From assembly GCA_024225445.1 (NCBI GenBank), contig JAAEMP010000073.1, forward strand, positions 415 through 64,414: a DNA stretch of 64,000 nucleotides, in the 5' to 3' direction. The position numbers and the translations under genes are program-made. Origin of the DNA: Hyphomicrobiales bacterium. Its GTDB lineage: Bacteria > Pseudomonadota > Alphaproteobacteria > Rhizobiales > Rhizobiaceae. The notes under the pieces were generated by a model. It was not told the DNA's origin, searched no databases, and saw nothing but the letters and a program-made list of their open reading frames with translations. Shown here piece after piece: positions 44,505-60,571 of this stretch (position 1 is the first letter of the stretch; the number at the start of each line of letters is the position of its first letter).

Positions 44505-44725
44505 TGCTGGTCCCGCACATGCTGTCGTCTTCGAGAAGTGGTACAACTTACGCAGTTACTGCAAAGCACGTCATCTAAAATCTCCGACGATTAGAGTTCC
44601 GGTTTAGATGTACAAGAGACCATCATCCGACTCAAATAAGTCAACCAATGCCTCTAATTGTTGTTGAAATGCCGCTGACCACGACAGGCAAAATTATCAA
44701 GGGGCGATTGAAGGCCAAGGATTAG
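44505..44725 (+). pseudogene. decayed 3' remnant of an AMP-dependent synthetase / acyl-CoA ligase gene
   Basis: The last frame reads PLIVVEMPLTTTGKIIKGRLKAKD*, which fits the terminal ..ELP.T.(S/T)GKI.R..L motif. An upstream fragment, AVVFEKWYNLRSYCKARHLKSPTIRVPV*, is in another frame. Stops and frameshifts interrupt it and no N-terminal domain is present. Confidence 0.5.
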
Positions 44726-44804: not shown

Positions 44805-46214
44805 TCAACTCATGATCACCTGAATATCGGTATATTCCGCCAGACCTTCCTTGCCAAATTCAACCCCGATACCGGAGCTTTTCACCCCGCCAAACGGCGC
44901 ATTGGGCTGGATTGCACCATGCTTGTTGATCCACACCGTACCACATTCCATTTTCAGCGCGGCAGCCTTGGCCGCCTTTATATCCTTCGACCATATCGAC
45001 CCACCCAAACCGTTGGGGTTGTCATTGGCCTTGGCTATGACCTTGTCGATATCCTTGTAACGAATGATCGGCAGAGCAGGTCCGAACTGTTCTTCATCCA
45101 CCAGCGCAATTCCATGATCAACATCACCTATCAAAGTAATTGGATAAAAATATCCGGCCCCCTTCTTTTTCGGATTGGCGCCCAACAATACCCGGCCACC
45201 CTTTTTAACCGCATCCTTCACCAGCCGATCAACCTTTTTGTATTGCATCTTGTTGGAGATGGGACCCAGAACGTTATCCTCATTCAATCCGTCACCCATC
45301 GGCATTTTTTTCGAGAAATTTATAAGATGTTTGCAGACCTTGTCATAAATCTTGTCGTGAACATAAAGGCGTTTCAATGCTGCGCAGGTCTGTCCGCCGT
45401 TAATGAAAGCCCCCCAGAACAAACCTTCCGCAATTTCCTTGGGGTCGGCATCCTCCATAACAATGCCGGCATCATTCCCGCCAAGCTCCAGCGTCAGACG
45501 TTTCAAGGTGTGAGCGGCACTTTCCATCACCTTTTTACCGGTATTACACGATCCGGTGAATATGATTTTGCCAATACCCTTGTGGGTCGACATCGCCGCC
45601 CCCAGGCTGTCTTCACCGGTAATGCAGTTGACGACGCCTGCTGGCAGAACCTCATTCATAATCTGCACCAGGCGAATCGTCGAAAGTGGAGTATATGGTG
45701 AAGGCTTGATTACTACGGTATTCCCGCTGCGAATGGCCGGTATAATGTGCCACACGGCAATCAGTACCGGCCAGTTCCATGGCGTGATTGAACCCACCAC
45801 TCCTATCGGCTTGCGATACATTTCGACCTTGCCCTCTTCATTGTCCTGTATAATCTCCACAGGCAATTGCAAATCAGCAGTAAAATGTGCCCAGGCCTGT
45901 GCACCACCAATTTCAAAACGTGAGCCCAGCCCGTTTAATGGCTTGCCTTGTTCGCGGGTCAAAAGGCGGGACAATTCATCAGCGTTTTGCTCAATTGCCT
46001 CAGCGACACCGTGGCAAGCCTTGCTGCGCTCCTCATCAGACACCTTACTCCAGCTGTCAAAGGCCCTGGCCGCGGCCTCAACTGCAGCATCCAGTTGTTT
46101 AGTACTCGCCCTGGGGGCTTCGCCAACAACTTTTCCGGTCGAGGGATTTTTCACCTCAAAGGTCTTGGTTGTTTTTATCGAATATCCGTTGATGATGTTT
46201 GGATATTGGGCCAT
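44805..46214 (-). CDS. NAD(P)+ aldehyde dehydrogenase (paralog A)
   Basis: 469 aa with TPWNWP, FTGSCNTGK, ELGGNDA and GQTCAALKR. Confidence 0.9.
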   Translation of the reverse strand: MAQYPNIINGYSIKTTKTFEVKNPSTGKVVGEAPRASTKQLDAAVEAAARAFDSWSKVSDEERSKACHGVAEAIEQNADELSRLLTREQGKPLNGLGSRFEIGGAQAWAHFTADLQLPVEIIQDNEEGKVEMYRKPIGVVGSITPWNWPVLIAVWHIIPAIRSGNTVVIKPSPYTPLSTIRLVQIMNEVLPAGVVNCITGEDSLGAAMSTHKGIGKIIFTGSCNTGKKVMESAAHTLKRLTLELGGNDAGIVMEDADPKEIAEGLFWGAFINGGQTCAALKRLYVHDKIYDKVCKHLINFSKKMPMGDGLNEDNVLGPISNKMQYKKVDRLVKDAVKKGGRVLLGANPKKKGAGYFYPITLIGDVDHGIALVDEEQFGPALPIIRYKDIDKVIAKANDNPNGLGGSIWSKDIKAAKAAALKMECGTVWINKHGAIQPNAPFGGVKSSGIGVEFGKEGLAEYTDIQVIMS

Positions 46215-46345: not shown

Positions 46346-46362
46346 TTGTATACTGTATCCAA
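46346..46362. promoter_or_regulatory. operator site A: TTGTATACTGTATCCAA (17-bp palindrome family)
   Basis: Lies in the divergent gap between ALDH-A and the FAD oxidoreductase. It matches sites B-E. Confidence 0.6.
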
Positions 46363-46512
46363 TAGTTGCGTATTGCAAGCACAAAACCAACCGTCCGGAA
46401 CAATACGGCTAAAACCGCGTAGTTTGGTAAACGCTGTTGCTTAACAACAAAAAAAGTAATGCACATTGAATGTCTGCAAGACGATCAAAAAGAAAACATC
46501 AGGGACAGGAAA

Positions 46513-47805
46513 ATGCCGAAGACGAGACCATATTGGTGGGAGGAATTCAAAACTTACAAAACACAACCCAAACACCTTCCCGAGGAATGCGATGTGGTGG
46601 TGGTTGGCGCCGGATTGACCGGCTGCTCAGCCGCGATAACCCTGGCCAAAACCGGTGCCAAGGTAGTGGTACTGGAAGCCCAGCGCCCGGGTTTTGGAGC
46701 CTCCACGCGCAATGGTGGTATGGTTGGTGGCGGCTACCGCGTACCCTTTGAGGAAATGGCAGAACGCTATGGACCGGGAACTGCTTATCGCCTGTTGACA
46801 GAATCCCACATCGATTCACTGAATTTCGCCAATGCCCGCATCAGGGAGGAGAAAATCAAGTGTGATTATAAAACATATGGCCGCTTTCGAGGAATGTGGA
46901 ACAAGGCGGAATATGACACAACCGCGAAATCGCTGGAACAATTACGCCAACTGATACCGGTGAATATCGACATGGTTCCGCGCGAGCAGCAACGCGATCA
47001 GATCGGTACGGATTTTTACAGTGGCGGCATGCTTTTGCATGACCACGGTGGTTTGCACCCGGCGAAATACCTGAACGGAATGCTGCATGCGGCTAAACGC
47101 GCAGGTGCCAAAATAGTCGGGTACACACCGGTCACCGAGGTCAAACCATCAGGCTCCGGGTTTATTGTAACGACCAGCAAAGGTTCAATCAAGGCCAGCT
47201 CAGTTCTCATGGCCACTAATGGCTATACGACGAGGGATTTTGCTGCGCTCAGACAGCGCGTCATTCCTGTCTCCAGTTTTCTCATCGCCACCAAAAAACT
47301 TTCAAAAAACCTGATTGACGAAATTATGCCAGCCCGTCGCATGGGTGTGGAAACCCGCCACCGCCACTGCTATTTCCGTCTGTCACCAGATTCAAGCAGG
47401 TTCATTATTGGTGGAAGAGCTGCCCTGTCCAATGTCTCTGAACCAAAAGCCACGGCCGTATTGCAGTCGCTTATGAGCGAGATTTTTCCGCAGTTGAAAT
47501 CGGCGAAAATATCCCATTCCTGGACCGGTCAGACCGGTTTCACCTTCTCGTTCATGCCCCATATCGGTCAGTTTGACGGGGTCTGGCATGCACTTGGTTA
47601 TTCGGGAAGCGGCAACGCCATGGCGCCCTATCTCGGGCACAAGGCAGCCCTGCAGATGCTCGGTGATCCAGCAGGAGAAACAGCCTTTACAGAAACAAAG
47701 CTGGAAACCCGGTCATGGTACCGGGGAACGCCATGGTTCCTGCCTTTCGCCCACAGGCTTTATCGCTGGACCGATTTCCGTGAAAATCTTCGCCGTGGAC
47801 GATGA
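46513..47805 (+). CDS. FAD-dependent oxidoreductase (DAO family; gamma-glutamyl-amine oxidase PuuB-like)
   Basis: It has the dinucleotide motif DVVVVGAGLTGCSAA followed by LEA...GFGASTRNGG. I prefer the start at the ATG at 46513. Confidence 0.8.
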   Translation: MPKTRPYWWEEFKTYKTQPKHLPEECDVVVVGAGLTGCSAAITLAKTGAKVVVLEAQRPGFGASTRNGGMVGGGYRVPFEEMAERYGPGTAYRLLTESHIDSLNFANARIREEKIKCDYKTYGRFRGMWNKAEYDTTAKSLEQLRQLIPVNIDMVPREQQRDQIGTDFYSGGMLLHDHGGLHPAKYLNGMLHAAKRAGAKIVGYTPVTEVKPSGSGFIVTTSKGSIKASSVLMATNGYTTRDFAALRQRVIPVSSFLIATKKLSKNLIDEIMPARRMGVETRHRHCYFRLSPDSSRFIIGGRAALSNVSEPKATAVLQSLMSEIFPQLKSAKISHSWTGQTGFTFSFMPHIGQFDGVWHALGYSGSGNAMAPYLGHKAALQMLGDPAGETAFTETKLETRSWYRGTPWFLPFAHRLYRWTDFRENLRRGR

Positions 47806-47942: not shown

Positions 47943-47959
47943 TTGTATACGGTATACAA
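47943..47959. promoter_or_regulatory. operator site B: TTGTATACGGTATACAA (perfect palindrome)
   Basis: Lies 209 nt upstream of ALDH-B. Confidence 0.6.
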
Positions 47960-48167: not shown

Positions 48168-49577
48168 ATGTTTCAGCAAATGCTTATTAACGGAAAGCTT
48201 GTCGGAAAAAGGTCACCGAAAAAGACAATTAACGTAGTCAACCCATCCACGCAGAAAGCATTTGCCCAGGTTCCAAAGGGAAAAATCAAACACATCAACA
48301 AGGCCGTAAAGGCAGCAAACAAGGCTTTCCCTGCCTGGGCGGCCACACCGCTGGAAAAGCGTCAGGCTATCGTTGAGAAAATGGCGGACGTTATTTCCGA
48401 TAACGCTGACAAACTCGCACGCCTTTTAACAAGCGAACAAGGCAAGCCAATGCCTGAAGCAATGGGGGAAATGGCCTGGACGGAAGGTTACCTTCGTCAC
48501 TACGCTACTCTTGAAGCCAGAGGGCGGACCATCCAGGATGATGACGACTTCAAAATCGAGGTGCGCCGTGTACCATTGGGTGTGGTCGCAGGTATATGCC
48601 CGTGGAATTTCCCGGTTCTTGTACCATTCTGGAAAATCGGCCCAGCGCTTGTTGCAGGCAATACTATAGTCATTAAACCGGCTCCGACTACCCCTCTGAC
48701 AATCTTGAAAATATTTGAACTATTCAACAATTTTGTGCCCGCAGGCGTTATCAATGTGGTAACCGATGAAAACGATCTGGGTCCTGCTCTGACCAACCAC
48801 CCTGATGTGGCCAAAGTCAGCTTTACCGGTTCTTGTGAAACCGGCAAGAAGATCATGGCATCATCTGCGAGTACTCTTAAACGGGTAACGCTGGAATTGG
48901 GAGGGAACGACCCGGCAATTGTATTGCCAGACGTTGATGTGGCCGCCACGGCCGCACAGATATATGGCGGTGCTTTCCTTAATGCCGGCCAGGTCTGTCT
49001 GGCGGTCAAGCGCGTATATGCCCACAAGGATATTTATGATGAAATGTGCGGCGAACTTGCCACGCTGGCCAACGAAGCAATTGTCGGGGACGGTTTGCAG
49101 CAGGGAACAACAATTGGGCCGGTCCAGAACAAGGCGCAATTCAAGAAGGTCAAGGCCTTTGTCAAAAGTGCAAGAAAGGACGGTAAAATCCTGTGTGGCG
49201 GCATCGTGAAAAACAAGGCCGGATACTTCGTCAACCCCGTCATTGTCCGGGATGTAAAGGATGGCGATGACATCGTTGACAAGGAACAGTTCGGGCCGAT
49301 TTTGCCGGTGATCAAATACTCCAATATCGAAAAGATCGGCAAACAAGCCAATGACACCGATTTCGGTCTGGGTGCCTCTGTCTGGTCGTCAGACACAGCC
49401 AAAGCGACAAAAATTGCTTCACAAATCGAGGCCGGTTCTGTCTGGGTCAACCAACACATCAATATCGGCCCGCACATTCCTATGGCAGGATTCAAGTCTT
49501 CAGGTATTGGTGTGGAGCAATCTGAAGAAGGTCTGGAAGAATACACTCAAATTCAGGTCATGAATATTGCCAAATAG
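48168..49577 (+). CDS. NAD(P)+ aldehyde dehydrogenase (paralog B)
   Basis: 469 aa, the same length and motif order as paralog A (CPWNFP, FTGSCETGK, ELGGNDP, GQVCLAVKR). Confidence 0.9.
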   Translation: MFQQMLINGKLVGKRSPKKTINVVNPSTQKAFAQVPKGKIKHINKAVKAANKAFPAWAATPLEKRQAIVEKMADVISDNADKLARLLTSEQGKPMPEAMGEMAWTEGYLRHYATLEARGRTIQDDDDFKIEVRRVPLGVVAGICPWNFPVLVPFWKIGPALVAGNTIVIKPAPTTPLTILKIFELFNNFVPAGVINVVTDENDLGPALTNHPDVAKVSFTGSCETGKKIMASSASTLKRVTLELGGNDPAIVLPDVDVAATAAQIYGGAFLNAGQVCLAVKRVYAHKDIYDEMCGELATLANEAIVGDGLQQGTTIGPVQNKAQFKKVKAFVKSARKDGKILCGGIVKNKAGYFVNPVIVRDVKDGDDIVDKEQFGPILPVIKYSNIEKIGKQANDTDFGLGASVWSSDTAKATKIASQIEAGSVWVNQHINIGPHIPMAGFKSSGIGVEQSEEGLEEYTQIQVMNIAK

Positions 49578-49665: not shown

Positions 49666-50964
49666 CTACAGGTTTCTCAGATAGCGATCCAGTTCGACCT
49701 GGGTTATCTGGTTGGCAAAAAATTCAAGCTCGCGCTCTGCCTGACCAGCTAAAATACCCAGCGTGTCCTCGCCGATTATATTGCCAACAAAATCTGACTG
49801 CTTTGCAAGTTTAATCGCTGTTTGCAAATCAGTCGGTAACAATTCGGCATCGGCATCCTCGTACGCATTGCCGGTCGTTTCCGGTGTCGGCTCAAGTTTT
49901 TGTTCAATCCCGTCAAGACCGGCAGCAATTTCGCAGGCCATTATATTGTAAGGGTTGCAATCCGCCGAGCCGTCACGTTTCTCAACCCGCACCGCACTGT
50001 CCTTACCCTCAATAATACGCAATCCAACGGTTCGATTATCAACTCCCCAACAGGTATTTACCGGGCTAAACGAATATGGCTGGCGACGTCGGTAGGCATT
50101 GGGGGTAGTTGCACCGGCCAGTGACATTTCACACATTCGTTTTTGCAGCCCGGCGACGTAGTTTTTACCGATCGCGGACAGTTTTCCATTATCTGCAAAA
50201 ACATTCTTTCCCCCACTCCAGAGGGAGTGATGCAGGTGAAATCCGTTACCTGATTCCTCTATGAACGGTTTTGCCATGAAAGTGGCGACATAGCCGTGTG
50301 CACCGGCTATTTCCTTGATCAGGCCACGAAAAGCTACAACCCGGTCGGCTGCCCTCAATGCCTCGCCGTAGCGAATATTGACCTCAACCTGACCGGCGGC
50401 ATATTCGGGATTGGATTGCTCAATGGGAATATCAACATCATTGAGATGGCGCCGGATAGGTCCCAATACATGCTCCAGTTCGGCGGAGCGAGCGAGACTG
50501 TAGACTCCGATACCGGTATCGCGTGGTTGCAAGGTTTCCTTGTCAAGCAGATAAAATTCCAGTTCGGCGCCAATCTGTACTTCGTACCCCATTTTGGCAG
50601 CGCGCTCCAGTACTCTGACCAGGCCATTGCGGGGGTCGATGGGAACCGGTTTATGATCCATTCCCTCCACCCGTCCAAAGCAGAATGCCACTCCGTCTTC
50701 CCAAGGAGTTGCATAAGCTGGCCCGTTTGGAAAAATGTGCATGTCGGGATAGCCATTGTCGAAGTTTACATATGGTGTGTCCCACACATCGCAGGTCATA
50801 TCGATTGCAAAGGTTGCAATTGATAAAGCCACTCCGTTTTCACAAACCGTCGGCCAGTGGCTGGCCGGTACCCGCTTGCCGCGCAGAATCCCGTTGGGAT
50901 CTCCTATGCCCAGCGCAACAGTATGAATACCTTCAGGCAAATTTTTATATTCAACACTCATCAA
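49666..50964 (-). CDS. glutamine-synthetase-family gamma-glutamyl-amine (amide) synthetase, GmaS/PuuA-like
   Basis: 432 aa with a GS catalytic-domain pattern (FMAKPF..GNGFHLH.SLW, ..NAYRR). It follows mgsABC-like genes, as gmaS does in N-methylglutamate-pathway clusters. Confidence 0.8.
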   Translation of the reverse strand: MMSVEYKNLPEGIHTVALGIGDPNGILRGKRVPASHWPTVCENGVALSIATFAIDMTCDVWDTPYVNFDNGYPDMHIFPNGPAYATPWEDGVAFCFGRVEGMDHKPVPIDPRNGLVRVLERAAKMGYEVQIGAELEFYLLDKETLQPRDTGIGVYSLARSAELEHVLGPIRRHLNDVDIPIEQSNPEYAAGQVEVNIRYGEALRAADRVVAFRGLIKEIAGAHGYVATFMAKPFIEESGNGFHLHHSLWSGGKNVFADNGKLSAIGKNYVAGLQKRMCEMSLAGATTPNAYRRRQPYSFSPVNTCWGVDNRTVGLRIIEGKDSAVRVEKRDGSADCNPYNIMACEIAAGLDGIEQKLEPTPETTGNAYEDADAELLPTDLQTAIKLAKQSDFVGNIIGEDTLGILAGQAERELEFFANQITQVELDRYLRNL

Positions 50965-51005
50965 GATCCTCCCAAATCAGATTTGCTACAATTTGCAATT
51001 TCACC

Positions 51006-52427
51006 CTACCATGAAAATGGCCGATCAATACCAGCAAGTTTAACCCCAGTAAAGGCAGAGGCTTCTGTAGAAAGGGCTCGAAGGTCTTCAACCTCAAGAT
51101 TGTGCACTGATGACTTCCCGCAGGCCTTTGCCAGAAGAGTAATCTCCATGGTCATAGCAGTTAAATATCTTGCGACCCGCTCAGCTGCCGCAGGCACATC
51201 AATTCGTTCTTCCAGTTCCGGCTCCTGGGTAGCAATGCCCACCGGGCAAAGCCCGGTATGGCAATGATGACACCTGCCCGGTTCCGTTCCCAGGGCTTCA
51301 TAACCATCAAAATATCGCGGCGAGTTACAGCCCAGTGCGATCAGAGAACCGGTTCCCACCATCACCGCATCTGCTCCCAAAGCCAGACATTTGGCTGCAT
51401 CGGTTCCCGAACGGATACCCCCGGCAGCCACCAGTGAAACTTTTCCGGACATACCACATTCATCCAGTGCTTCACGCGCCGCACGAATCGCCGTCATGGT
51501 CGGAATACCGGTATGGTTGAGCAGCAGTTCAGGCGAGGCGCCTGTTCCACCTTCAGCACCATCAACAACAACTACATCAACCCCTGCCTTTGCCGCAATA
51601 GCCACGTCATAGCGTGGCCTTGTGGCTCCCATCTTGAGAAAAATCGGAACCTTGTAATCAGTCGCTTCACGCAGTTCTTCGATCTTCACCTGCATATCAT
51701 CAGCACCAAGAAAATCGGGGTGTCTGACGGTAGACCGCTGATCAACACCGGAAGGCAACGAGCGCATACCGGCAACGCGTTCGGACACTTTCATGCCGAG
51801 CAACAACCCGCCGGTTCCCGGTTTGGCACCCTGTCCAACTACCAGTTCGATGGCATCGGCCATTCGCAAATGAGCCAGATCAAGCATATAGCGGGACGGT
51901 GTCATCTGGTAGACAAGTGTCCTGGAAGCCCGACGCTCGTCTTCCAGCATTCCGCCTTCACCGGTACAGGTCAAGGTCCCAACTTTGGAAGCACCATAAC
52001 CCAGTGCCGCCTTGGCATTTGCCGACAGCGCACCAAATGACATTGAAGCAATATAGATGGGAATATCCAGCTCCAGTGGATTTTCAACCAGCCCGGATCC
52101 CCCGCCGAGAACGGTTTTTGTGTCGCAGCTTTCACGATATCCCTCCAGCGGCAGGCGGGTCATGGTCGCAGGCACGAATGTCAAATCATCAAAACTGGGC
52201 AGGCGATGGTTAAAGCTGTTAAAGCCGCGTATCTGATAACGCCCGAGACGTGAAAGCGCGTGAATTTCCGAAATTGATTCAGGTGTCCAGGATACTGATT
52301 CACCACGCGCGTATGATTTGGGCACTCCTGCCGGGCGATCTTCCACCCCGCCATCCTTCATTGCCACCGCGTCTTCCGAGGGCATTTCAAACGGATATTC
52401 GTATGGTTTCTTCATATCATCAGCCAT
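51006..52427 (-). CDS. glutamate-synthase FMN-domain-like protein (MgsC-like)
   Basis: 473 aa with GEGG, the G.GAKPG.GG motif (VVGQGAKPGTGGLL) and DGAEGGTGASP. Confidence 0.85.
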   Translation of the reverse strand: MADDMKKPYEYPFEMPSEDAVAMKDGGVEDRPAGVPKSYARGESVSWTPESISEIHALSRLGRYQIRGFNSFNHRLPSFDDLTFVPATMTRLPLEGYRESCDTKTVLGGGSGLVENPLELDIPIYIASMSFGALSANAKAALGYGASKVGTLTCTGEGGMLEDERRASRTLVYQMTPSRYMLDLAHLRMADAIELVVGQGAKPGTGGLLLGMKVSERVAGMRSLPSGVDQRSTVRHPDFLGADDMQVKIEELREATDYKVPIFLKMGATRPRYDVAIAAKAGVDVVVVDGAEGGTGASPELLLNHTGIPTMTAIRAAREALDECGMSGKVSLVAAGGIRSGTDAAKCLALGADAVMVGTGSLIALGCNSPRYFDGYEALGTEPGRCHHCHTGLCPVGIATQEPELEERIDVPAAAERVARYLTAMTMEITLLAKACGKSSVHNLEVEDLRALSTEASAFTGVKLAGIDRPFSW

Positions 52428-53104
52428 GCGCTAGCGTCCCTACTTTCAAAATGCCACAAACGTTGGGCGGACACGATCTTCTGCCATTGGTGTGAGTTGT
52501 CACCCAACCCCAATTCATCCAAAAGTTTTTCTACACTGGCAATTTCCTGTGAACTCGGTTCAACCACCTTTGAATCCACACCCAGCGATTCTATCGGGCC
52601 AGCCACCCAGACCTCACCGCCCCACAAGCTGTCGGCGCAGGCTTCGCCTGCCCCCGACAGGGCAATGATCCGCCCGGCATGAGACATGAAACCGGCCATG
52701 TAACCAATCTTGCCTTCAACGACGATATCGCCACCTTTCATAGCCACACCGCAACGCGGTCCGGCATCACCCTTGACATGTATCAGACCGCCTCGCATGG
52801 AAGCGCCAAGTGACATGCCTGCATAACCATTGACAAGAATTTCTCCGCTGGCCATGGCTTCACCGCACGACCAGCCGACATTGCGCTCGACCTCGATATT
52901 GGCGCCGTCATTAAGCCCGCCGCAGTAATAACCAACACTGCCCTCAAAGCGGATATCGGCACCAGGTGGCAGACCAACCCCCAGATTATGCCGTGAACGC
53001 GTATCGCGTACAATAACCTTGTTTCCTTCAGCCAGCGCGGCCTTGATTTCCCTGTTGACTTCGCGAATTGGACGATCCTTGACGGTGACAATAACCTCAC
53101 TCAT
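52412..53104 (-). CDS. GXGXG-motif protein (glutamate synthase alpha C-terminal-domain-like; MgsB-like)
   Basis: 230 aa with repeated G.G.G beta-helix motifs (GSVGYYCGG, GYAGMSLG, GDAGPRCG, GKIGYMAG). Confidence 0.85.
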   Translation of the reverse strand: MSEVIVTVKDRPIREVNREIKAALAEGNKVIVRDTRSRHNLGVGLPPGADIRFEGSVGYYCGGLNDGANIEVERNVGWSCGEAMASGEILVNGYAGMSLGASMRGGLIHVKGDAGPRCGVAMKGGDIVVEGKIGYMAGFMSHAGRIIALSGAGEACADSLWGGEVWVAGPIESLGVDSKVVEPSSQEIASVEKLLDELGLGDNSHQWQKIVSAQRLWHFESRDASAWLMI

Positions 53105-54045
53105 GCCGCTTTCCTCAATGTTCCGATTTCCCAGGTCTTGGTCATGCTCGGGCCATCATAATTATTGACAACCTCCTCACCAAGATAGATCATCCGTACT
53201 GCCTGTTCTTCCGTGGCAACCGCCATTTGCCCATTTTCCTCAATCGCCACCAACGGCTTGATTGCCCAGCGGTCCTTGGCAAAGCCCATGCTATGAATGT
53301 CTGAAATCAGATAAGTAAATACCCCATCTATTTGCGATATCGATTTTTTCAGTGACTGGGCCTGACTTAATCCCTGTGACATCTGATCGGAAATCCACAC
53401 CGCCAACAATTCGCTGTCATTATAGGTCATGAACCTGTAGCCTTTTCGCTCCAACCGTTCCCGCCACGTGTAGTAATCGGTTATCTGACCATTGTGAACA
53501 ATTGCCACATCGGGAAAAGGCCGTGCCCAAAACGGATGGCTGGCAGTTGGCGAGACGCTTGATTCAGTGGCAAGACGCGCGTGACCAAGGCCATGAGTAC
53601 CAATAAAATCACGTATATTGTGCTTGTCAGCAACTTCACTGGCCCCGCCCAAATCCTTGACAATTTCAAGCGAACGGCCCACTGATTGCATCTCCAGGTT
53701 TTCACAAATTGTGTCAGCCTGACGTGCCCAGGCGGCAAAATCATTTGGATCCTTTATCACCATTCGGACAGAAACATGGGGGGTATCAGCATCATCCCAT
53801 GTAGGATCTGAAATGAAATCCGAATTATTCTCAATCAGAATATTTTTGAAATCCTGCAAATCACTCGATAGCCTGTCTCTGTTACTAGCCATGGCGCGAA
53901 CGATATAACCCGTATCCAGCGGTGAACCATAAAGTGCAAATCCGGTTGAATCCGCACCCCGGTGACGCTGTGATTCCATCAACTCCACCAAATCTGCACC
54001 AATTCTACCGGGTGCAGTAAGTATTCGTCCGGCTATCCCGCACAT
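53101..54045 (-). CDS. class-II (Ntn) glutamine amidotransferase-like protein (MgsA-like)
   Basis: Starts MCGIAG (catalytic Cys2) and contains RHRGADSTG. It overlaps the next gene by 4 nt. Confidence 0.85.
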   Translation of the reverse strand: MCGIAGRILTAPGRIGADLVELMESQRHRGADSTGFALYGSPLDTGYIVRAMASNRDRLSSDLQDFKNILIENNSDFISDPTWDDADTPHVSVRMVIKDPNDFAAWARQADTICENLEMQSVGRSLEIVKDLGGASEVADKHNIRDFIGTHGLGHARLATESSVSPTASHPFWARPFPDVAIVHNGQITDYYTWRERLERKGYRFMTYNDSELLAVWISDQMSQGLSQAQSLKKSISQIDGVFTYLISDIHSMGFAKDRWAIKPLVAIEENGQMAVATEEQAVRMIYLGEEVVNNYDGPSMTKTWEIGTLRKAA

Positions 54046-54066
54046 AGAAGCATTTCCTTTTGCATA

Positions 54067-54083
54067 CAGTATACAGTGTACAA
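54067..54083. promoter_or_regulatory. operator site C: CAGTATACAGTGTACAA
   Basis: Lies 22 nt upstream of the mgsA-like start, in the 107-nt gap after livH. An overlapping ATACAGTATACA half-site lies just upstream. Confidence 0.5.
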
Positions 54084-54151
54084 TATTATCCTATTCCCAG
54101 AACTCAAAATACGCAAGGAAAACTTTGGGCAGCTTAATACAATTGTGCCCT

Positions 54152-55039
54152 TCAGCGCATCGGTTCCGGATTGCTGGCGATAATGCCGTTGGGGCGGAAA
54201 ACAAGGAAAATAATCAATAACAGCAACACCGCGGCATCCCTGAACACCACAAGATTATCAGGCAACAAGAACAACAGGGTTGCTTCAAGCGCGCCAAGCA
54301 GAAATCCACCATAAAGCGCACCCTTTGGATTTGCCAACCCCCCGATTATTGCCGCAATAAGAGCCTTGATCATTGGTGTTAGTCCGAGCGCGGGAAATAC
54401 CGCTCCGCGCTGGGAAATCCATAACAGCGCAGCGACACCCGCCAGCGCACCGGACAAAAAGAAAGCCAGCGCAATCACCCGGTTTGCCTGAATTCCCACC
54501 ACCCTGGCAACATCAAAATCAGCTGCTGAAGCCCGCAGTGATATACCCAGTCGCGAGTGGGCAAGAAACAGGCGCAGCAGGATCAGTGAGGCAAATGCCA
54601 CCACCACCGTAAATATCTGGGCGCGCGAAACAAACACATCACCAATGGTGATATAGCCGGAGAGGAATTCCGGGATCGGAATTGGTTTGGAACGCGGGCT
54701 GATGCCAACCTGAAAAATCACATGCAGTGCCCCGGATATTGCAAAAGAAGTAATCAGCAACGTCATCGGACTGCGCCCGCGCAACGGTCGAAAGGCTATG
54801 CGTTCCATGGCAACAGCGCACAATCCGGCAAAAATAATGGCCAGCAGCACCGCCAGCCAGAAGGGCGTATGCCAACCGATCATGAAAAACAACGCATAGC
54901 CAAATAATGTCATAAGGTCGCCATGGGCAAAATTCAGAAATCCCAGCTGCCCGAACACAACAACCAGCCCCAGCGCCAGCAGGGCATAAATGGCTCCAAG
55001 ATTTAGCACAGCAACCAGATACTGAATGAACTCAGCCAT
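54152..55039 (-). CDS. branched-chain-amino-acid-type ABC permease (LivH-like)
   Basis: Polytopic. I prefer the start MAEFIQYLVAVLNLGAIYALLALG at 55039, which overlaps the upstream stop by 8 nt. Confidence 0.85.
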   Translation of the reverse strand: MAEFIQYLVAVLNLGAIYALLALGLVVVFGQLGFLNFAHGDLMTLFGYALFFMIGWHTPFWLAVLLAIIFAGLCAVAMERIAFRPLRGRSPMTLLITSFAISGALHVIFQVGISPRSKPIPIPEFLSGYITIGDVFVSRAQIFTVVVAFASLILLRLFLAHSRLGISLRASAADFDVARVVGIQANRVIALAFFLSGALAGVAALLWISQRGAVFPALGLTPMIKALIAAIIGGLANPKGALYGGFLLGALEATLLFLLPDNLVVFRDAAVLLLLIIFLVFRPNGIIASNPEPMR

Positions 55040-55757
55040 TGCCACTCTCCCGACTGCCGGTTCCAAGATAACTGTCATGGACAAACTGGTCATCAGCCAG
55101 TTCATCGGCAGGACCTGAACGCACAATCATTCCCAGTTCCATCACATAGGCACGGTCCGCAATCGCCAGACTCTTTTTGACATTCTGCTCGACCAGCAGA
55201 ATAGTTACCCCTGACGCGCGCAACTCAGCGATGATCTCAAAAACTTTTGTAACAATTTTCGGTGCCAGACCCAGCGAGGGTTCATCCAGAATAAGGCAGG
55301 TCGGATTGACCATCAGTGCTCGCGCAATTGCCAGCATCTGCTGTTCTCCGCCGGAAAGCGTGCCCGCATCCTGCTCACGGCGCTCTCTCAGCACCGGAAA
55401 CTGTTCCAGCACAGAACCGAGGCGCCTGTCGAAGTCACTTCGTGAAAGCGTACAGCCTCCGGCGCGCAGATTGTCAATGACTGAAAGTGATTTGAACACC
55501 CGGCGTCCCTCAGGTGAAAACGACAATCCCATCCCTGCCCGGTTCTCGACCGGAACACCAGCCAGCGAATTGCCTTTCAGAACAATGTTGCCGCTGACAA
55601 TTGGCACCAGTCCCATGATGGCGTTAAGTGTGGTGGTCTTGCCCGCCCCGTTTGCGCCGATAATTGTCACCAGCTCTCCACTGTCCACTTCAAAGGAAAT
55701 GCCCTTAACCGCCGCCACCGGACCGTATGATACGCATAAATTGGAAACTACCAGCAT
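55032..55757 (-). CDS. ABC ATP-binding protein (LivF-like)
   Basis: It has GANGAGKTT, LSGGEQQML and LILDEPS. Confidence 0.9.
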   Translation of the reverse strand: MLVVSNLCVSYGPVAAVKGISFEVDSGELVTIIGANGAGKTTTLNAIMGLVPIVSGNIVLKGNSLAGVPVENRAGMGLSFSPEGRRVFKSLSVIDNLRAGGCTLSRSDFDRRLGSVLEQFPVLRERREQDAGTLSGGEQQMLAIARALMVNPTCLILDEPSLGLAPKIVTKVFEIIAELRASGVTILLVEQNVKKSLAIADRAYVMELGMIVRSGPADELADDQFVHDSYLGTGSRESGNG

Positions 55758-55834
55758 GATTGGTTACTTCAAGGAATTTGTAATAAGGGTACCACCGGCA
55801 AATATGCCGGTGGCAAGTTTGGCAAGCCAGTCAC

Positions 55835-57007
55835 TTATTTGGCTTTCGGTATTTCAGACGGATCAAGCTTGATTGAGGTAATATATTTGCCCTCTCCATT
55901 TTCAATTTTCATAATGTGAACCGGAAGGTTCGGAGCTTTGCCGACACCCTTGAAGGTTGCCTTACCGATCTCGGTATCAACATTTTCAAGCTGGCCAAAG
56001 GCATCACGCAATGCGGCAGGTTCGATTGTACCTGCCTTTTCTGCAGCTGCTGCAACCATCCGCATGGCGGAATAACCGACCATCGCAGGATAAAAGCTGT
56101 CAGCATTACCAAATTTTGTTTCATAAGCCTTGACAAAATTTGCGGCACTTTCACTGGTGCTGGGTGCTGCCATTGTCACATAGTGAACACCATCGACCAC
56201 TTTGCCCAACCCTTTAACGGAAGGCTGGTCAAGCACATCAGGACCAAGATAGGTTGACGTGATACCTGCGGCGCGCAACTGGTTGATAAAGATGGGAAAA
56301 TCATTGTCAAATGGCATCGCCATAATGACATCGGGTTGCTGGGGCAGCTTCTTGATATCTGCAACCACTTTGGTGAATTCCTGCTGGTCGTAGGTAAAAG
56401 TCGATTGGCCAACCACTTTACCTCCATTTTTTTCAAAGGAATCCTTGAAATAGAGCGGCAGATATTCTGTATACGGATCAAAATCTGACGTCACGATATA
56501 GGCAGTTTTTGCCTTCAGGCCGGTGGTGGCAAATTTGCCGTAAACCGCACCCATGTGTGCATCCGACATCATCACCAGATAACTGCCACCGCCCGCACGT
56601 GCGGGAATTGTCGGCTGGGATGCAATGGTGTGCATGATCAGGAGATTTTCCTTTTTGACCATGGTTCCCGCAGCAATCGCACTGGGTGAAATTGCACTTG
56701 AAACAAACATGTTCATTTTCTGTGACTTCAACAATTCTGCAATGGCGATTGCTGTTTTTTGCGGGTCAGACGCATCATCGCGCTCCACCAGTGTAATCGG
56801 ATATTTTCCATTGAGTCCGCCATTTTTGTTTGCTTGCTCAATATACATGGTAACGCCCTGCATAAACGGCGCATCATAAGCTGCCATGAAGCCTGTGCGA
56901 GCACTTACGGCACCAATGACAAAGTCTTCCGCCTGAGCAGGTGCATACCCAGCCCCAGCCAGTGTTGAAGCCGCTACAACAGCGGCAAAAATAGTTTTGT
57001 TAATCAT
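55835..57007 (-). CDS. periplasmic binding protein, type-1 (LivJ/K-like; amino acid/amide/amine)
   Basis: The start MINKTIFAAVVAAS...AQA is a signal peptide, preceded by a GGGAGAAG RBS. Operon context supports the call. Confidence 0.8.
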   Translation of the reverse strand: MINKTIFAAVVAASTLAGAGYAPAQAEDFVIGAVSARTGFMAAYDAPFMQGVTMYIEQANKNGGLNGKYPITLVERDDASDPQKTAIAIAELLKSQKMNMFVSSAISPSAIAAGTMVKKENLLIMHTIASQPTIPARAGGGSYLVMMSDAHMGAVYGKFATTGLKAKTAYIVTSDFDPYTEYLPLYFKDSFEKNGGKVVGQSTFTYDQQEFTKVVADIKKLPQQPDVIMAMPFDNDFPIFINQLRAAGITSTYLGPDVLDQPSVKGLGKVVDGVHYVTMAAPSTSESAANFVKAYETKFGNADSFYPAMVGYSAMRMVAAAAEKAGTIEPAALRDAFGQLENVDTEIGKATFKGVGKAPNLPVHIMKIENGEGKYITSIKLDPSEIPKAK

Positions 57008-57036
57008 ATTACTTCTCCCTTTTGTTAATTTTAGTT

Positions 57037-58959
57037 TCATTCGCCAAGGTAATGTTCCTCATCCCCCTCTTCTCCCACATATGCCTCAATCACATCGGCA
57101 TTGGTACTGATCTCGGCTGGCTGCCCATCCGCAATCAGTTCACCTTTGTTGAGTACATAAATGCGATTGCATAATTGCATAACCATTTTCAGATCATGCT
57201 CTACCAGCAATACGCCAACGCCAAAATCACGAACAATTCGGCTGAGCAAGGTTTTGAGTTCCTCTGTCTCCGATGAATTCATACCTGCCGCGGGTTCATC
57301 CAGCAGCAGAAAGTCCGGTTCCAGCGCAAGCGCGCGGGCAATCTCAAGCCAGCGCTGGTCTCCATAGGCAAGATTGCTTGCCAGAACTGCTGCCTTGTCC
57401 TCAAGATTGAGTAAAGCCAACCATTCGCGCGCTCTTTTCTGCGCCCTGGCTCGGCTAAGTGCGGGTGACTTCACGGTAACCGCGCAAATTACATTTTCCA
57501 GCACTGTCAATGAAGTGAACAGGCGAATGTTCTGATAAGTGCGGCCAAGTCCATTTCGCGCCAGGCGCACCGCACTCCATGATGTAGCCTCCTGACCGCC
57601 CACCAAAATGGTTCCGGAAGAAGCAAACAGGTTACCGGTCAAGACATTGATAAACGTCGTCTTGCCCGCGCCATTTGGCCCGATCAATCCGACAATTTCC
57701 CCGGCATCGACCCTGAGACTGACATCTGAAAGTGCGCTTAATCCGCCAAAGGTCTTTGACAGACCTGAAGTTTCAAGACTACGCCTGATGTCAACTTTGT
57801 AACCGGGTGTCGCAAGCTGCCCGGATTGAACCGCACTGCTCCCACCTCCCTTAAACAATAAAACCGCCAGTTCGCGGTAACCCAGCAATCCTTCCGGGCG
57901 CAGATATAAAACGATGAGGATCAGGATGGAAAATGAAATTGCAGTCAGGCCAAATACAAGGGGGAACTCAAACCCGAATATCGTTTCAGTTCCGGCAAAA
58001 CTACCTAGATATTCCTCCGTATTGCGAAACACTTTCTCGGCAAAGGTAATCACTATAGCACCGATTGCACACCCGCTGATTGAGCGATAACCACCGAGAA
58101 TAATCATCACCACCAGGGCAAAGGTCTTTTCAAGATAAAACCCGTTGGGAGAAATCACACCAACCACATGGGCATACAAGCCGCCGGCAAGTCCGACCAA
58201 CCCGGCACTGGCCGTCCAGAACAAAAAGATATTTATCTGTGGTTCAATGCCGATGGAACGCGATGCCTGCTCCTCGTCCCGCGTAGCCTCCAGATGTCTG
58301 GCAGCCTTTGTACTTTTTAGAAAAAACGCAGCGCCAAGCGCCACTGCAAGGGAGGAGACAATAACTGGCCAGGTGGCGTATTCTGTCGGGATTGCATACA
58401 AAGACTGTTTGCCATTGGTAAGCACTTTTGCTCCGACAAAAACCAGATAAGCAATGATAATCAGACCGAAACTGGCAATCACCGCCGAAGTATCGCGCAG
58501 GCGCATGATAACCAGACCGGAAATGGCACCAATCACCAGGCAAACCAATATAGCAACCGGCAATGCCAAGGGTAACGACCATTCTGCTTCGCGTACAAAA
58601 GCAGGCATGTCAGCCAGCAAGAACGATTTTAGCGCGGGCGGCAAGGTAAACCAGACCGTTACATAGGCGCCAATTCCAAAGAAAGACACATGTCCCAGTG
58701 ACAAAATTCCGCTGGTCCCCGAGAACAAACCAAGACCGACGGCGGCGATAATGTTGATGCAGCCAAGCATCAACAACTCGCGTCCGGCAATGTTTGTAAG
58801 CAAAGAGAAAGCGACAATGGCGCAAATTAGCGGCAAAATAATTGCACCAGAAATCAGGCACTCACGCGAGCGCTGGTCAAAAAAGGCTCTCGACGCACTA
58901 ATGTCGTCACGACCGGCGACGGCCTGGTCCTGCACCAGAGTTTCTTGCTGCTCGCTCAT
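57037..58959 (-). CDS. fused ABC permease (LivM-like) + ATP-binding (LivG-like) protein
   Basis: About 640 aa. The N-terminal approx. 350 aa are polytopic. The C-terminus has GPNGAGKTT, L.YGDQRWLEIARAL and LLLDEPAAG. Confidence 0.85.
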   Translation of the reverse strand: MSEQQETLVQDQAVAGRDDISASRAFFDQRSRECLISGAIILPLICAIVAFSLLTNIAGRELLMLGCINIIAAVGLGLFSGTSGILSLGHVSFFGIGAYVTVWFTLPPALKSFLLADMPAFVREAEWSLPLALPVAILVCLVIGAISGLVIMRLRDTSAVIASFGLIIIAYLVFVGAKVLTNGKQSLYAIPTEYATWPVIVSSLAVALGAAFFLKSTKAARHLEATRDEEQASRSIGIEPQINIFLFWTASAGLVGLAGGLYAHVVGVISPNGFYLEKTFALVVMIILGGYRSISGCAIGAIVITFAEKVFRNTEEYLGSFAGTETIFGFEFPLVFGLTAISFSILILIVLYLRPEGLLGYRELAVLLFKGGGSSAVQSGQLATPGYKVDIRRSLETSGLSKTFGGLSALSDVSLRVDAGEIVGLIGPNGAGKTTFINVLTGNLFASSGTILVGGQEATSWSAVRLARNGLGRTYQNIRLFTSLTVLENVICAVTVKSPALSRARAQKRAREWLALLNLEDKAAVLASNLAYGDQRWLEIARALALEPDFLLLDEPAAGMNSSETEELKTLLSRIVRDFGVGVLLVEHDLKMVMQLCNRIYVLNKGELIADGQPAEISTNADVIEAYVGEEGDEEHYLGE

Positions 58960-59104
58960 CGCAATACAATGACAAAGGCCTGCCCGCAAACATCCAGGCA
59001 GGACATTTGACCAGACTTCGAGGTGATATTATCCAACTCTAGGTTTTCTGCTCCAATGTCATTTTATATCCTCCCATATATCTTTATTCTGCGTTTTATC
59101 AATT

Positions 59105-59121
59105 TTGTATACTGTATTCAA
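59105..59121. promoter_or_regulatory. operator site D: TTGTATACTGTATTCAA
   Basis: Lies 146 nt upstream of the livMG-fusion start. It differs from site A at one position. Confidence 0.6.
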
Positions 59122-59242: not shown

Positions 59243-59356
59243 ACTTTCGACCACATTGAAGCATTTGATGGGATAAATCGGTTCACTCGGCCAGGCGCGG
59301 TGCGCAGCGCGATCTGGTTGATCGATCAAACGATTCAATGCAACCATGAAAAGTCC
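59243..59356 (+). repeat. copy R2 of the intergenic repeat family; the most complete copy, with head and inverted tail able to pair
   Basis: The head is actttcgaccacattgaagcatttgatgg and the tail is gatcaaacgattcaatgcaaccatgaaaagtcc. The reverse complement of the tail (ggacttttcatggttgcattgaatcgtttgat) nearly equals the head of R1. Confidence 0.6.
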
Positions 59357-59442: not shown

Positions 59443-59853
59443 TTAGGTCAGTGAAATCTTGCCGTTTCGCGAATGAATAATGGCATCAACTTCAATCTCT
59501 ACCATCATTCCAGGCGTCGTCAGACCGGCCTGGACACCGGTTAAAACCGGCTCAATTCCCTTGAATATTTCGCCATGTCGGCGGATAAATCCACCTGCAT
59601 CACGCATATCGGAAACAAATGCCCTGGTTCGAACAATGTGGCGCATTTTTGCATCCACAGTCCCAAGAACATCTTCTATCTTATTGAAAATATAAACAGT
59701 TTGCTCATATATATCATAAGGAGCATATACCTTGCCATTTTGTTGCATGGATGTTAATCCAGCGACAAATACAAACGGTCCTACTCTTTTTACGCGGGAA
59801 TACGAAGCGGCCTTCTCAAACCGTCCGCTACCTGATACTGACATTAAAACCAT
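59443..59853 (-). CDS. RidA/YjgF/Rut-family (reactive enamine/imine deaminase-like) protein
   Basis: It has the C-terminal pattern R..F......D........F......P..T.V....L......VEI. The start is at 59853 or 59844; the longer ORF-track start would overlap the gntR promoter. Confidence 0.75.
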   Translation of the reverse strand: MVLMSVSGSGRFEKAASYSRVKRVGPFVFVAGLTSMQQNGKVYAPYDIYEQTVYIFNKIEDVLGTVDAKMRHIVRTRAFVSDMRDAGGFIRRHGEIFKGIEPVLTGVQAGLTTPGMMVEIEVDAIIHSRNGKISLT

Positions 59854-59868
59854 GTATCCTGTATACAG
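59852..59868. promoter_or_regulatory. operator site E: ATGTATCCTGTATACAG
   Basis: Lies in the approx. 40-nt divergent gap between ridA and gntR and overlaps the ridA start region. This is consistent with autoregulation. Confidence 0.5.
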
Positions 59869-59893: not shown

Positions 59894-60571
59894 ATGTTCA
59901 AAAAAGCACCTCAGGCAAGACCAAGACTGGCCGCTGATGTTTACGATCAGCTTTTGTCTGCCGTCGTCAACGGACAGATAAAACCAGGTGAACGTCTGAT
60001 ACAGGAAAAAATTGCCGCGCAAATCAATATCAGCCGCACCCCCGTGCGAGAAGCGCTGTTACGTCTGGAGCAGGAAGGTGTGCTTGAACAAACCGGGCGC
60101 AGGGGTTTTACCATTCGTGATATTACCGACCAGGAAATCCGTGCGCTTTATGGTGCTCGTGAGGCGGTTGAAGGTTATGCGGCCTATGTGATAGCTACCG
60201 ACAGGGGCGATCAGCAACTTGCTACTATTGAACAGGCTGTCTTAGCAGAACAGCAACTCTTTGAGCGCGATGTTGAAAAGGAATTCACGATCAATCGTAA
60301 CATTCATCGCACTATTGTTGAGCAAAGCGGTAATTCAGTTTTGCTGGGAATGTTTGACAGTTTGTGGAGTCGTGGTGTTTCATTGTGGTTGTTTTCTGCA
60401 ACCCGGAACGATCAGACCCCGTCGAAGCCAGATGTGCATTCAAAACTGTTGCAAAAACTGAAATCCGGCACCCCTGAAGAAGCCCAGAAAGAGATGATCG
60501 ACCACATCCGCGATGGATTGGACATGCATTTGGAGAACAAGAAAACGCATGCAAGTAATCCGGATTCGTGA
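59894..60571 (+). CDS. GntR-family regulator, FadR/FCD subfamily
   Basis: I prefer the start at MFKKAP. The wHTH is VYDQLLSAVVNGQIKPGERLIQEKIAAQINISRTPVREALLRLEQEGVL. The C-terminus is all-helical and FCD-like, with H..I....GN. Confidence 0.85.
   Translation: MFKKAPQARPRLAADVYDQLLSAVVNGQIKPGERLIQEKIAAQINISRTPVREALLRLEQEGVLEQTGRRGFTIRDITDQEIRALYGAREAVEGYAAYVIATDRGDQQLATIEQAVLAEQQLFERDVEKEFTINRNIHRTIVEQSGNSVLLGMFDSLWSRGVSLWLFSATRNDQTPSKPDVHSKLLQKLKSGTPEEAQKEMIDHIRDGLDMHLENKKTHASNPDS

Follow-up and report, generated by a model that had tools for sequence, protein, structure and literature searches.

The window analysed here is a stretch of 64,000 nucleotides on contig JAAEMP010000073.1 (hereafter C73) of a Hyphomicrobiales bacterium, whose genome (assembly GCA_024225445.1) comprises 4.94 Mb in 475 contigs and is estimated to be 100% complete. 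On its minus strand it carries a run of eight genes (58989 to 49666) that code for a LIV-type ABC importer, for three proteins resembling MgsABC of the N-methylglutamate (NMG) pathway of methylamine use, and for a protein of the glutamine synthetase (GS) family. This cluster is very probably a paralogous version of the NMG machinery that has its own regulation and serves another amine. Its GS-like protein is orthologous to the glutamine synthetase of the MIC2 microcompartments (66–82% identity, single clade). The original prediction, made from the sequence of the window, had put forward a hybrid gamma-glutamyl-mediated route for an amine other than methylamine, and this fits the comparative data, in which the same operator occurs in 80 loci and a family of oxidases of N-substituted amino acids is the constant partner.

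The eight genes stand in the predicted order (open reading frame [ORF] listing, Pfam and NCBIfam scans). The last four, all on the minus strand, code for an MgsA-like Ntn (class-II) amidotransferase subunit (53101..54045; GATase_6/7) with the N-terminus MCGIAG and hence an N-terminal Cys, an MgsB-like GXGXG subunit (52412..53104; PF01493), an MgsC-like FMN subunit with a glutamate-synthase domain (51006..52427; PF01645, 309 bits), and a GS-like protein of 432 aa (49666..50964; Gln-synt_C), a predicted ATP-dependent gamma-glutamyl ligase of a distinct subfamily with the motif IPIEQSNPEY. A class-II amidotransferase with Cys1, a GXGXG protein, and an FMN-domain protein are thus encoded together, as in a three-subunit synthase. 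The mgs names rest on domains and gene order, with no curated mgs-specific model behind them. The canonical NMG order is mgsABC-gmaS, with mgdABCD divergent (PMC6237917). The window resembles the NMG pathway of methylotrophs and of the marine Roseobacter group in having four protein families in equal order, the N-terminal Cys of MgsA, intact ligase residues, and presumably the two-step logic from gamma-glutamyl-amide to N-substituted glutamate. It differs in that the GS-like protein is not GmaS, in that no MgdABCD is linked, and in the presence of a monomeric flavin oxidase, two aldehyde dehydrogenases (ALDHs), a Rid-family protein, the LIV-type ABC importer, and a GntR operator.

The transporter, mgsABC, the GS-like gene, the oxidase, and the aldehyde-handling genes would form one regulon, and the strongest evidence for this is an operator footprint that recurs across two proteobacterial classes. 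The operator is a GntR-type palindrome, TGTATAC-N-GTATACA (TTGTATACNGTATACAA). It has six matches in the window against 0.11 expected by chance; two of them overlap, which leaves five operator sites (46346, 47943, 54060/54067, 59105, and 59852), every one in a promoter-bearing gap. The double site (54060..54083, overlapping copies at 54060 and 54067) lies ∼20–35 bp upstream of mgsA, in the gap between the livH-like and mgsA-like genes; the operator had been placed there correctly, although the gap measures 106 nt (54046–54151) and not 107 nt. A further copy (TTGTATACTGTATTCAA, one mismatch; 59105..59121) stands upstream of the transporter operon, and the equivalent position is conserved in related loci. 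Another (59852–59868) immediately precedes the plus-strand gene of a GntR/FCD regulator (59894..60571; 225 aa from the ATG, the longest ORF beginning at 59732; Pfam GntR and FCD), the presumed repressor of the regulon. The DAO-family oxidase and the two ALDHs that had been assigned to the same regulon are present and preceded by operators: one copy (47943–47959) is upstream of ALDH 2, and one (46346–46362) occupies the divergent gap between the DAO gene and ALDH 1, an arrangement also seen in L035, L039, L043, and L044 (orthologous loci are designated by L numbers).

Orthologs of the GS-like gene were collected by a scan of GTDB species representatives, which gave 356 loci, and the best 80 of the 356 (66–82% identity) were used. 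These 80 loci (1.44 Mb) contain 92 operator sites, compared with none in five shuffles. Almost without exception, an operator lies ∼30–40 bp upstream of mgsA; the other positions are the gap between the oxidase and the GS-like gene, the DAO/ALDH gap, and the region ahead of the Rid gene or of the binding protein. Orthologs of the GntR regulator are divergent from mgsA or from the Rid gene in 32 of the 80 loci.

Outside the window, a perfect operator copy (TTGTATACCGTATACAA) is found on contig C44 (9040–9056; L119, 6041–6057), where it separates an ABC operon of the Dpp/Opp type (SBP_bac_5 with two permeases and two ATPases) from an amidase-signature gene (525 bits on the PRK06170 model, above its cut-off). 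Both the operon and the gene may belong to the same GntR regulon, and a weaker operator copy occurs at C22:18411. Acyl-CoA dehydrogenases and nonorthologous amidase-signature genes also adjoin the module in some relatives without a shell, namely, L040 (2245–4552, 11398–12828), L071, and L106. An amidase was considered as a conserved upstream step and rejected: the amidase-signature genes of L040, L071, L106, and the C44 operator are 28–30% identical and not orthologous.

The GS-like protein remains below the cut-offs of the models for GmaS (TIGR03105; 219.9 bits, cut-off 469.6), PuuA (NF045547; 206.8 bits, cut-off 650), and GlnA (TIGR00653; 208 bits, cut-off 429). It reaches 122 bits against the solved RhGmaS and is 25–32% identical to every paralog in its own genome. 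A protein search returned more than 2300 relatives (protein clusters), all annotated merely as "glutamine synthetase family protein." In a maximum-likelihood tree that also includes GmaS, GlnA, and three further GS-like paralogs of the genome, the 81 orthologs form a clade of their own (SH-aLRT 100, stem length 1.38), apart from all of these.

Alignment to GlnA, GmaS, and other paralogs from the same genome shows that the catalytic set is kept (E134, E136, E187, E194, H243, H245, R292–294, R311, R316, E328, and R330). Because these are the metal-, ATP-, and glutamate-binding positions, the protein should, judging by its residues, be active as a gamma-glutamyl ligase. GS-fold ligases that conjugate amines other than ammonia are known, namely, the gamma-glutamyl-amine synthetases GlnA4 of Streptomyces (ethanolamine), IpuC of Pseudomonas (isopropylamine), and NpaA1 (arylamines). 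The window protein would be a ligase of this type, but its identity to each of them is ∼30% or less, and we know of no MgsABC-like complex in these three systems. Among its better solved matches is 8wwu (165 bits), which we take to be NpaA1.

In GmaS, the methylamine pocket consists of Tyr147, Gln175, Asp177, Glu179, Glu186, and Asn188, with Trp189 nearby (PMC7948447). At the corresponding positions of the window protein, Asp177 is replaced by Asn185, His178 by Pro, and Trp189 by Ile197, so that the motifs read YQNDHED..FEINW in GmaS and EQSNPEY..VEVNI in the window. In an alignment of 22 sequences of the GS-like family, the motif IPIEQSNPEY and Asn185 are invariant, and Ile197 is nearly so (at least 90%). 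Because the Asp and the Trp of the GmaS methylamine pocket are replaced, the residues argue for a ligase that acts on an amine other than that of GmaS; the altered pocket does not say which.

If the window nevertheless served the methylamine NMG pathway, whether as the sole or as a redundant system, it would have to use MgdABCD supplied by another part of the genome. The domain order amidotransferase/GXGXG/FMN/GS-like is indeed that of mgsABC-gmaS. No SoxBDAG/mgdABCD-like gene was found on contig C73, in keeping with what had been reported for the window, and the soxB model alone gave a match, to the monomeric DAO gene, which was weak (46 bits). The suggestion that mgd is encoded elsewhere holds to the extent that a profile search of the genome identified three beta/delta/alpha/gamma Sox-like sets, on contigs C137, C389, and C59. 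It does not account for the window cluster because the Mgd-like set goes with another set of mgs genes: the one on C389 (7883–12970) is flanked by a second mgsA and a fused mgsBC (5773–2922), FTHFS, and FolD, which is the layout expected of an NMG dehydrogenase with C1 oxidation. The genome moreover has a true GmaS on C291 (2060–3367), which scores 642.7 bits on the GmaS model (cut-off 469.6) and 646.6 bits against the RhGmaS structure 7cql. The true GmaS, the second mgs set, and the Mgd-like set on other contigs led us to reject a canonical NMG pathway with mgd elsewhere. Methylamine as the substrate of the window cluster is accordingly very unlikely: the GS-like protein falls under the GmaS cut-off with the pocket Asp and Trp replaced, no mgd genes occur in the regulon of the related loci, and formaldehyde/tetrahydrofolate chemistry needs neither the aldehyde-forming oxidase of the regulon nor its ALDHs, CoA ligases, or microcompartment.

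The other mgs genes of the genome are distant paralogs of those in the window. The window mgsABC-like proteins show 37–42% identity to the Mgd-linked set; MgsA is 39–40% identical to the genome's two other MgsA paralogs, and MgsB is 37% identical to the C389 paralogs. A further mgsA/B/C trio (C389:19252–22434) follows a GS-like gene that keeps the GmaS pocket. Three observations on these regions may be added. First, C389:374–15609 (L120) is a probable canonical NMG block, in which SoxB/D/A/G-like genes, FTHFS, and FolD stand divergent to mgsA, a fused mgsB-mgsC gene (652 aa), and a GltD-like fusion of 866 aa (Fer4_20, Pyr_redox_2, and a partial FMN domain); such a GltD-like neighbor of an NMG synthase may be relevant to the enzyme's redox cofactor. 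Second, in C389:17547–26068 (L120, L121), the third GS-like plus mgsA/B/C set just mentioned is followed by a 447-aa DAO-family gene; the GS-like protein of this set has the pocket motif QGDHED..LELNW, a large insertion, and 310 bits on the GmaS model (cut-off 470). Third, the neighbors of the true gmaS (C291:1288–5827, L122) are an Amt-family transporter and a class-I amidotransferase/Peptidase_C26-like gene instead of mgsABC, a hint of a branch with a gamma-glutamylmethylamide hydrolase.

No protein of the module is more conserved than MgsC, which is 76–95% identical to its orthologs in the 80 loci. MgsC keeps three Cys aligned with three Cys of the genome's own GltB, presumably the 3Fe-4S cysteines. 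All MgsC paralogs keep them too, and they were therefore discarded as a discriminator between paralogs; a 17-aa insert with an extra Cys is common to the window protein and the C389b paralog. The aligned Cys, and the pairing of a GS-like protein with a three-part glutamate-synthase-like set, would suit a split ammonia assimilation system of the glutamine synthetase/glutamate synthase (GS/GOGAT) type, or a biosynthetic rather than catabolic role (e.g., a gamma-glutamyl or N-substituted glutamate product). Several results make this highly improbable. Phe299 of the GS-like protein aligns with the flap Glu of the genome's GlnA (VPGFEAP), which we equate with Glu327 of the enterobacterial enzyme; the same position is also nonacidic in the genome's own uncharacterized GS-like paralogs. 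The GlnA score is below the cut-off, no GltD-like partner is present in the cluster, and the genome has an ordinary GlnA on C98 and GltB on C5. Finally, the cluster and its relatives bear the hallmarks of catabolism: a GntR regulator of the FCD type, an importer, ALDHs, CoA ligases, and metabolosome shells.

The hosts of the 80 loci are marine Hyphomicrobiales, Rhodobacterales, Rhodospirillales, Granulosicoccaceae, Thioglobus, Arenicellales, and Poriferihabitaceae (Alpha- and Gammaproteobacteria), and many of the carrier genomes were recovered from sponges, corals, and bryozoans. The loci divide into 21 without a shell and 59 with a microcompartment (MIC2). In 20 of the 21 shell-less loci, and in all 15 that have full flanks, mgsABC is found directly upstream of the GS-like gene. 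When only loci with full flanks are considered, mgsC is within 10 kb of the GS-like gene in 15/15 shell-less and 18/35 MIC2 loci. Five MIC2 genomes without mgsC in the flank were searched, and all five hold a 77–84% identical ortholog elsewhere, apparently nearby in three. The full order of the window (RidA-like, LivMG, binding protein, LivF, LivH, DAO, ALDH) is shared by seven to ten shell-less loci.

A search for the GS-like ortholog did not find it in two genomes of the same genus or in 17 others of the same family, but did in one of the 12 same-order genomes covered. Since the distribution among kin is this patchy and the protein tree mixes Alpha- and Gammaproteobacteria, the module is accessory and, in all probability, horizontally mobile. 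Rows without a shell are nested within the MIC2 part of the tree, where at least six switches occur; the window itself falls in a shell-less subclade of 13 rows. The nesting makes it likely that the window is a shell-less derivative of the MIC2 form (loss rather than gain), with the root within the clade resting on very long outgroup branches.

MIC2 was catalogued from 22 loci in Acidithiobacillia, Alpha-, and Gammaproteobacteria, with function unassigned (PMC8217296, supplement file 6). The enzymes given for it comprise an AldDH, a dehydrogenase of pfam02866 extended at its N-terminus, a 6-phosphogluconate-dehydrogenase (6PGDH)-like protein, and a pfam00120 glutamine synthetase, and MIC2-7 are among the loci lacking an obvious aldehyde-generating signature enzyme; neither glutamate-synthase-like genes nor an oxidase are mentioned in the catalogue text (PMC8217296). 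No later characterization of MIC2 was found in the openly accessible literature. Two other assignments of the shelled relatives were dropped: HO-type, as HO stands for Haliangium ochraceum, and MIC1, as the supplement text points to MIC2 instead.

After the GS-like gene, the MIC2 loci have BMC-P, BMC-H, a 398-aa protein, a 459-aa ALDH, BMC-T, a ∼400-aa MDH/LDH-like protein, Rid, and a LIV-type ABC system. Among the cultured bacteria with the MIC2 form are Ruegeria profundi ZGT108, Falsiruegeria mediterranea M17, Tropicibacter sp. R16_0, and Hoeflea poritis E7-10. A 380-aa DAO-family gene is divergently upstream in 57 of the 59 loci, and mgsABC with GntR lies within 10 kb in 18 of the 35 with full flanks. 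In L034 and L046–L114 (e.g., L034:8751–16856), the divergent oxidase, the mgsABC-like genes near or elsewhere, and the GntR operator thus go beyond the 2021 catalogue text. The L034 oxidase is a member of the family of N-methyltryptophan and monomeric sarcosine oxidases (186 and 166 bits), the ALDH is acylating and EutE-like (497 bits on the acetaldehyde-dehydrogenase model, 314 bits on the sulfoacetaldehyde dehydrogenase model), and the MDH-like protein has a ∼100-aa extension. The predicted structure of the 398-aa ("6PGDH-like") protein (pLDDT 88.4, pTM 0.86; 30 orthologs) has as its best match 1bg6, N-(1-carboxyethyl)-norvaline dehydrogenase (E = 1.2e-20, TM 0.72/0.81), followed by octopine, yersinopine, staphylopine, and pseudopaline dehydrogenases; by this model, it is an opine-dehydrogenase fold. 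Hence, secondary amines in N-substituted amino acids may be the targets of three families of the MIC2 loci: the MgsABC-like complex (by analogy), the sarcosine-oxidase-family oxidase, and the opine-dehydrogenase-fold protein.

With the MIC2 loci the window shares the GS-like ortholog, the mgsABC-like genes, the Rid gene, the GntR regulator, the operator, and the class of LIV-type importer. In contrast, it has a pipecolate-oxidase/PuuB-like DAO and two nonacylating ALDHs and no shell, and so lacks the combination that marks a MIC2 locus (PF00936/PF03319 shell with AldDH, PF02866, 6PGDH-like protein, and PF00120 GS). Shell genes (PF00936) have no match in the whole genome, nor does the genome contain orthologs of the MIC2 398-aa protein, the MSOX-like oxidase, the acylating ALDH, or the MDH-like enzyme. 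In six shell-less loci, including that of the cultured Sulfitobacter sp. JB4-11, the cluster contains one or two acyl-CoA ligases of two types, PRK12583 (849 bits, above cut-off) and a short-chain type nearest to MbcS (branched-chain acyl-CoA synthetase, 545 bits) and then to acetate-CoA ligase (442 bits). The PRK12583 ligase was tried as a link to leucine catabolism and rejected, its ortholog in the window genome (C184) lying outside any liu-like cluster. From these enzymes, both variants would end in acyl-CoA, by an acylating ALDH in the shell or through aldehyde, acid, and acyl-CoA in the cytosol.

We propose, with somewhat more confidence than doubt, a chain that would lead from a gamma-glutamyl-amide to an N-substituted glutamate, then by flavin-dependent release to an aldehyde, and finally to an acid. 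The amine would be imported by the LIV-type ABC system and joined by the GS-like ligase to the gamma-carboxyl of glutamate at the expense of ATP. The MgsABC-like complex would free it from the gamma-glutamyl-amide at the Ntn-Cys site and, at the FMN site, move it onto the 2-carbon of the glutamate/2-oxoglutarate skeleton to give an N-substituted glutamate. A monomeric flavin oxidase would then take the place of the four-subunit MgdABCD and oxidize the N-alkyl C–N bond, yielding glutamate and an aldehyde, which the two ALDHs would convert to an acid; related loci would then add an acyl-CoA ligase. The Rid-family protein would have an accessory role.

The oxidase candidate in the window is a monomeric FAD oxidoreductase of the DAO family (46459..47805, plus strand). 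Its nearest named model is that of L-pipecolate oxidase (AmaA), which is also a secondary-amine oxidase. ALDH 1 (44805..46214, minus strand), an NAD(P)-dependent enzyme best matched by models of the aminobutyraldehyde-dehydrogenase type, has 75–90% identical orthologs beside the DAO gene in L035, L036, L039, L043, and L044. ALDH 2 (48168..49577, plus strand; PF00171), also NAD(P)-dependent, scores 445 bits on an aminobutyraldehyde-dehydrogenase subfamily model, under its cut-off, and has 76–81% orthologs in L068, L074, L095, and L106.

These three genes, in one regulon with the GS-like gene, resemble puuA/B/C. As in the Puu/Pau pathways of putrescine and other polyamines, a GS-like ligase, a DAO-family oxidase, and ALDHs are co-regulated, and the amine would be handled as a gamma-glutamyl conjugate. 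One could therefore suppose that the GS-like enzyme attaches a gamma-glutamyl group to one end of a diamine or amino compound, that the DAO oxidizes the distal amine as PuuB does, that an ALDH forms the gamma-glutamyl-amino acid as PuuC does, and that MgsA serves as the hydrolase in place of PuuD; the aminobutyraldehyde-dehydrogenase-type models of the ALDHs would suit this, and an Ntn amidotransferase could hydrolyze a gamma-glutamyl amide. We consider it improbable, and the strict Puu-like chemistry of the original prediction is not sustained. The PuuA score is 207 bits against the required 650, the two ALDHs have 258 and 303 bits on the PuuC model (NF007352) against 850, and a genome search found no match to PuuD/Peptidase_C26 (PF07722), a class-I amidotransferase, on contig C73. 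The complete MgsABC-like complex of the window is absent from Puu, and MgsB and MgsC would be left without a role, although MgsC is so highly conserved and always operator-controlled. In the MIC2 relatives, the sarcosine-oxidase-family oxidase and the opine-dehydrogenase-fold enzyme both act on secondary amines, and short-chain acyl-CoA ligases and an acylating ALDH do not suit a gamma-glutamyl-amino-acid product.

As to the amine that would enter the chain through N-substituted glutamate, the combination of encapsulation with an ALDH of the acetaldehyde type and with short-chain ligases suggests a small, aliphatic aldehyde. A plain short alkylamine (C2–C5: ethyl-, propyl-, isobutyl-, or isoamylamine) is our tentative choice of substrate. 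The same mechanism could instead serve a functionalized amine abundant in marine hosts (taurine/hypotaurine, ethanolamine, 1-amino-2-propanol, beta-alanine, or GABA), which would agree with the many carriers from sponges, corals, and bryozoans and with the LivK-like polar pocket residues kept by the binding protein. The MIC2 MDH/LDH-like enzyme resembles the lactaldehyde-handling dehydrogenase of the PVM and MIC1 microcompartments (PMC4207490), and the acylating ALDH does have 314 bits on the sulfoacetaldehyde dehydrogenase model. Its score on the acetaldehyde model is however higher (497), the linked ligases are of short- and branched-chain fatty-acid types (MbcS-like, acetate-CoA-ligase-like, PRK12583), and Xsc, sulfite-handling, and phosphonatase genes are not conserved in the loci, all of which makes a functionalized amine unlikely. 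The taurine/Xsc idea had come from a lone thiamine pyrophosphate enzyme near L032 and was abandoned, as this protein is acetolactate-synthase-like and lies beyond a transposase.

Some points weigh against the proposed chain and its alkylamine substrate. The window DAO is in the same broad family as PuuB, so that oxidation of the distal amine of a gamma-glutamyl-diamine is possible. The MgsC Cys aligned with the presumed Fe-S Cys of GltB mean that an unrecognized redox partner may exist. The binding protein keeps most of the alpha-amino-acid residues of LivK, and its ligand may be amino-acid-like. In half of the MIC2 loci, the distance to mgsABC exceeds 10 kb. The chain does not account for the role of the Rid protein, and the step from N-methylglutamate to "N-alkylglutamate" is without precedent in the openly accessible papers searched. 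A literature search that omits most subscription journals likewise returned no paralogous mgs/gmaS system for another amine, no N-ethyl- or N-alkylglutamate pathway, and no function for MIC2.

A wider scheme, to which we give slightly less than even credence, would make N-substituted glutamates a general carrier form for primary-amine oxidation and the present gene set the missing aldehyde-generating "signature" pathway of MIC2. The opine-dehydrogenase-fold and MDH-like enzymes may in that case recycle NADH in the shell, and the window would be one of at least six independent shell gains or losses, in which the encapsulated acylating ALDH and the sarcosine-oxidase-type oxidase were swapped for cytosolic ALDHs and a PuuB/pipecolate-oxidase-type enzyme. 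If true, the gamma-glutamyl/N-methylglutamate strategy, known for methylamine only, extends to other amines in a widespread marine module, and the MIC2 microcompartments receive a first concrete, testable biochemical proposal. Paired versions of one pathway, with and without a shell, are useful for asking why and when encapsulation pays. They also call for caution with metagenomes, as gmaS/mgsABC-like clusters do not all indicate methylamine use.

The Rid-family gene (59443..59853, minus strand; ∼136 aa, YjgF/Ribonuc_L-PSP in Pfam) had been described as a RidA imine deaminase. The gene is present and is conserved in both variants of the module, with 59% identity to the Rid gene of the MIC2 loci, but it belongs to a subfamily without the RidA arginine. 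In E. coli RidA, Arg105 binds the carboxylate of the imino acid. Where archetypal RidA reads PAR, the window protein reads PVL, with a Leu at the Arg position (alignment to 2csl and 6izh), and its best solved match, 3i7t, also lacks the Arg. Because the residue is missing, "imine deaminase" should not be used as a name on the strength of this sequence.

The importer begins with a fused LivM-type permease and LivG-type ATPase (57037..58989; BPD_transp_2 at residues 72–323, ABC_tran at 420–567, and BCA_ABC_TP_C; LivG model 243 bits), in which 58959, given as the end in the original prediction, is the first ATG of the ORF and which has 70–80% orthologs at the equivalent position in L035–L045. Next come a periplasmic binding protein with a signal peptide (55835..57040; Peripla_BP_6, of the LIV/urea/amide family in the Pfam and NCBIfam scans), a LivF-type ATPase (55032..55757; 224 bits on the LivF model, under its cut-off), and a LivH-type permease (54152..55039) of 295 aa from the ATG at 55039, as in its L032 ortholog (295 aa), the longest ORF reaching 55126. 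The binding protein has no close relative among solved structures (best 63 bits). When it is mapped on LivK, Ser79, Ala101, and Tyr150 are kept, and Thr102, Glu226, and Tyr202 are replaced by Ser, Asp, and Phe, so that the Glu226 position stays acidic; these are the alpha-amino-acid-binding positions of LivK. Between the LivMG and Rid genes, a gap of 453 nt contains, besides the operator, a copy of an intergenic repeat (59243–59356), which may separate the Rid gene from the transporter operon.

Beyond ALDH 1, a plus-strand stretch (44657..44713) may be the remnant of an acyl-CoA ligase gene, from its 3′ end: its 19 aa are 42% identical to the C-terminus of the L074 ligase (..PLTTTGKIIKGRLK), a weak match (E = 0.25 in a search of 650 nt). 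Elsewhere in the genome (C200, C250, C248, C115, C40, C242, C448, C251, and C58), at least 12 genes code for DAO plus GcvT-type proteins of 800–870 aa (dimethylglycine-dehydrogenase-like). Together with the three heterotetrameric Sox-like sets, they make up an unusually large repertoire for oxidizing N-methyl and other N-substituted compounds.

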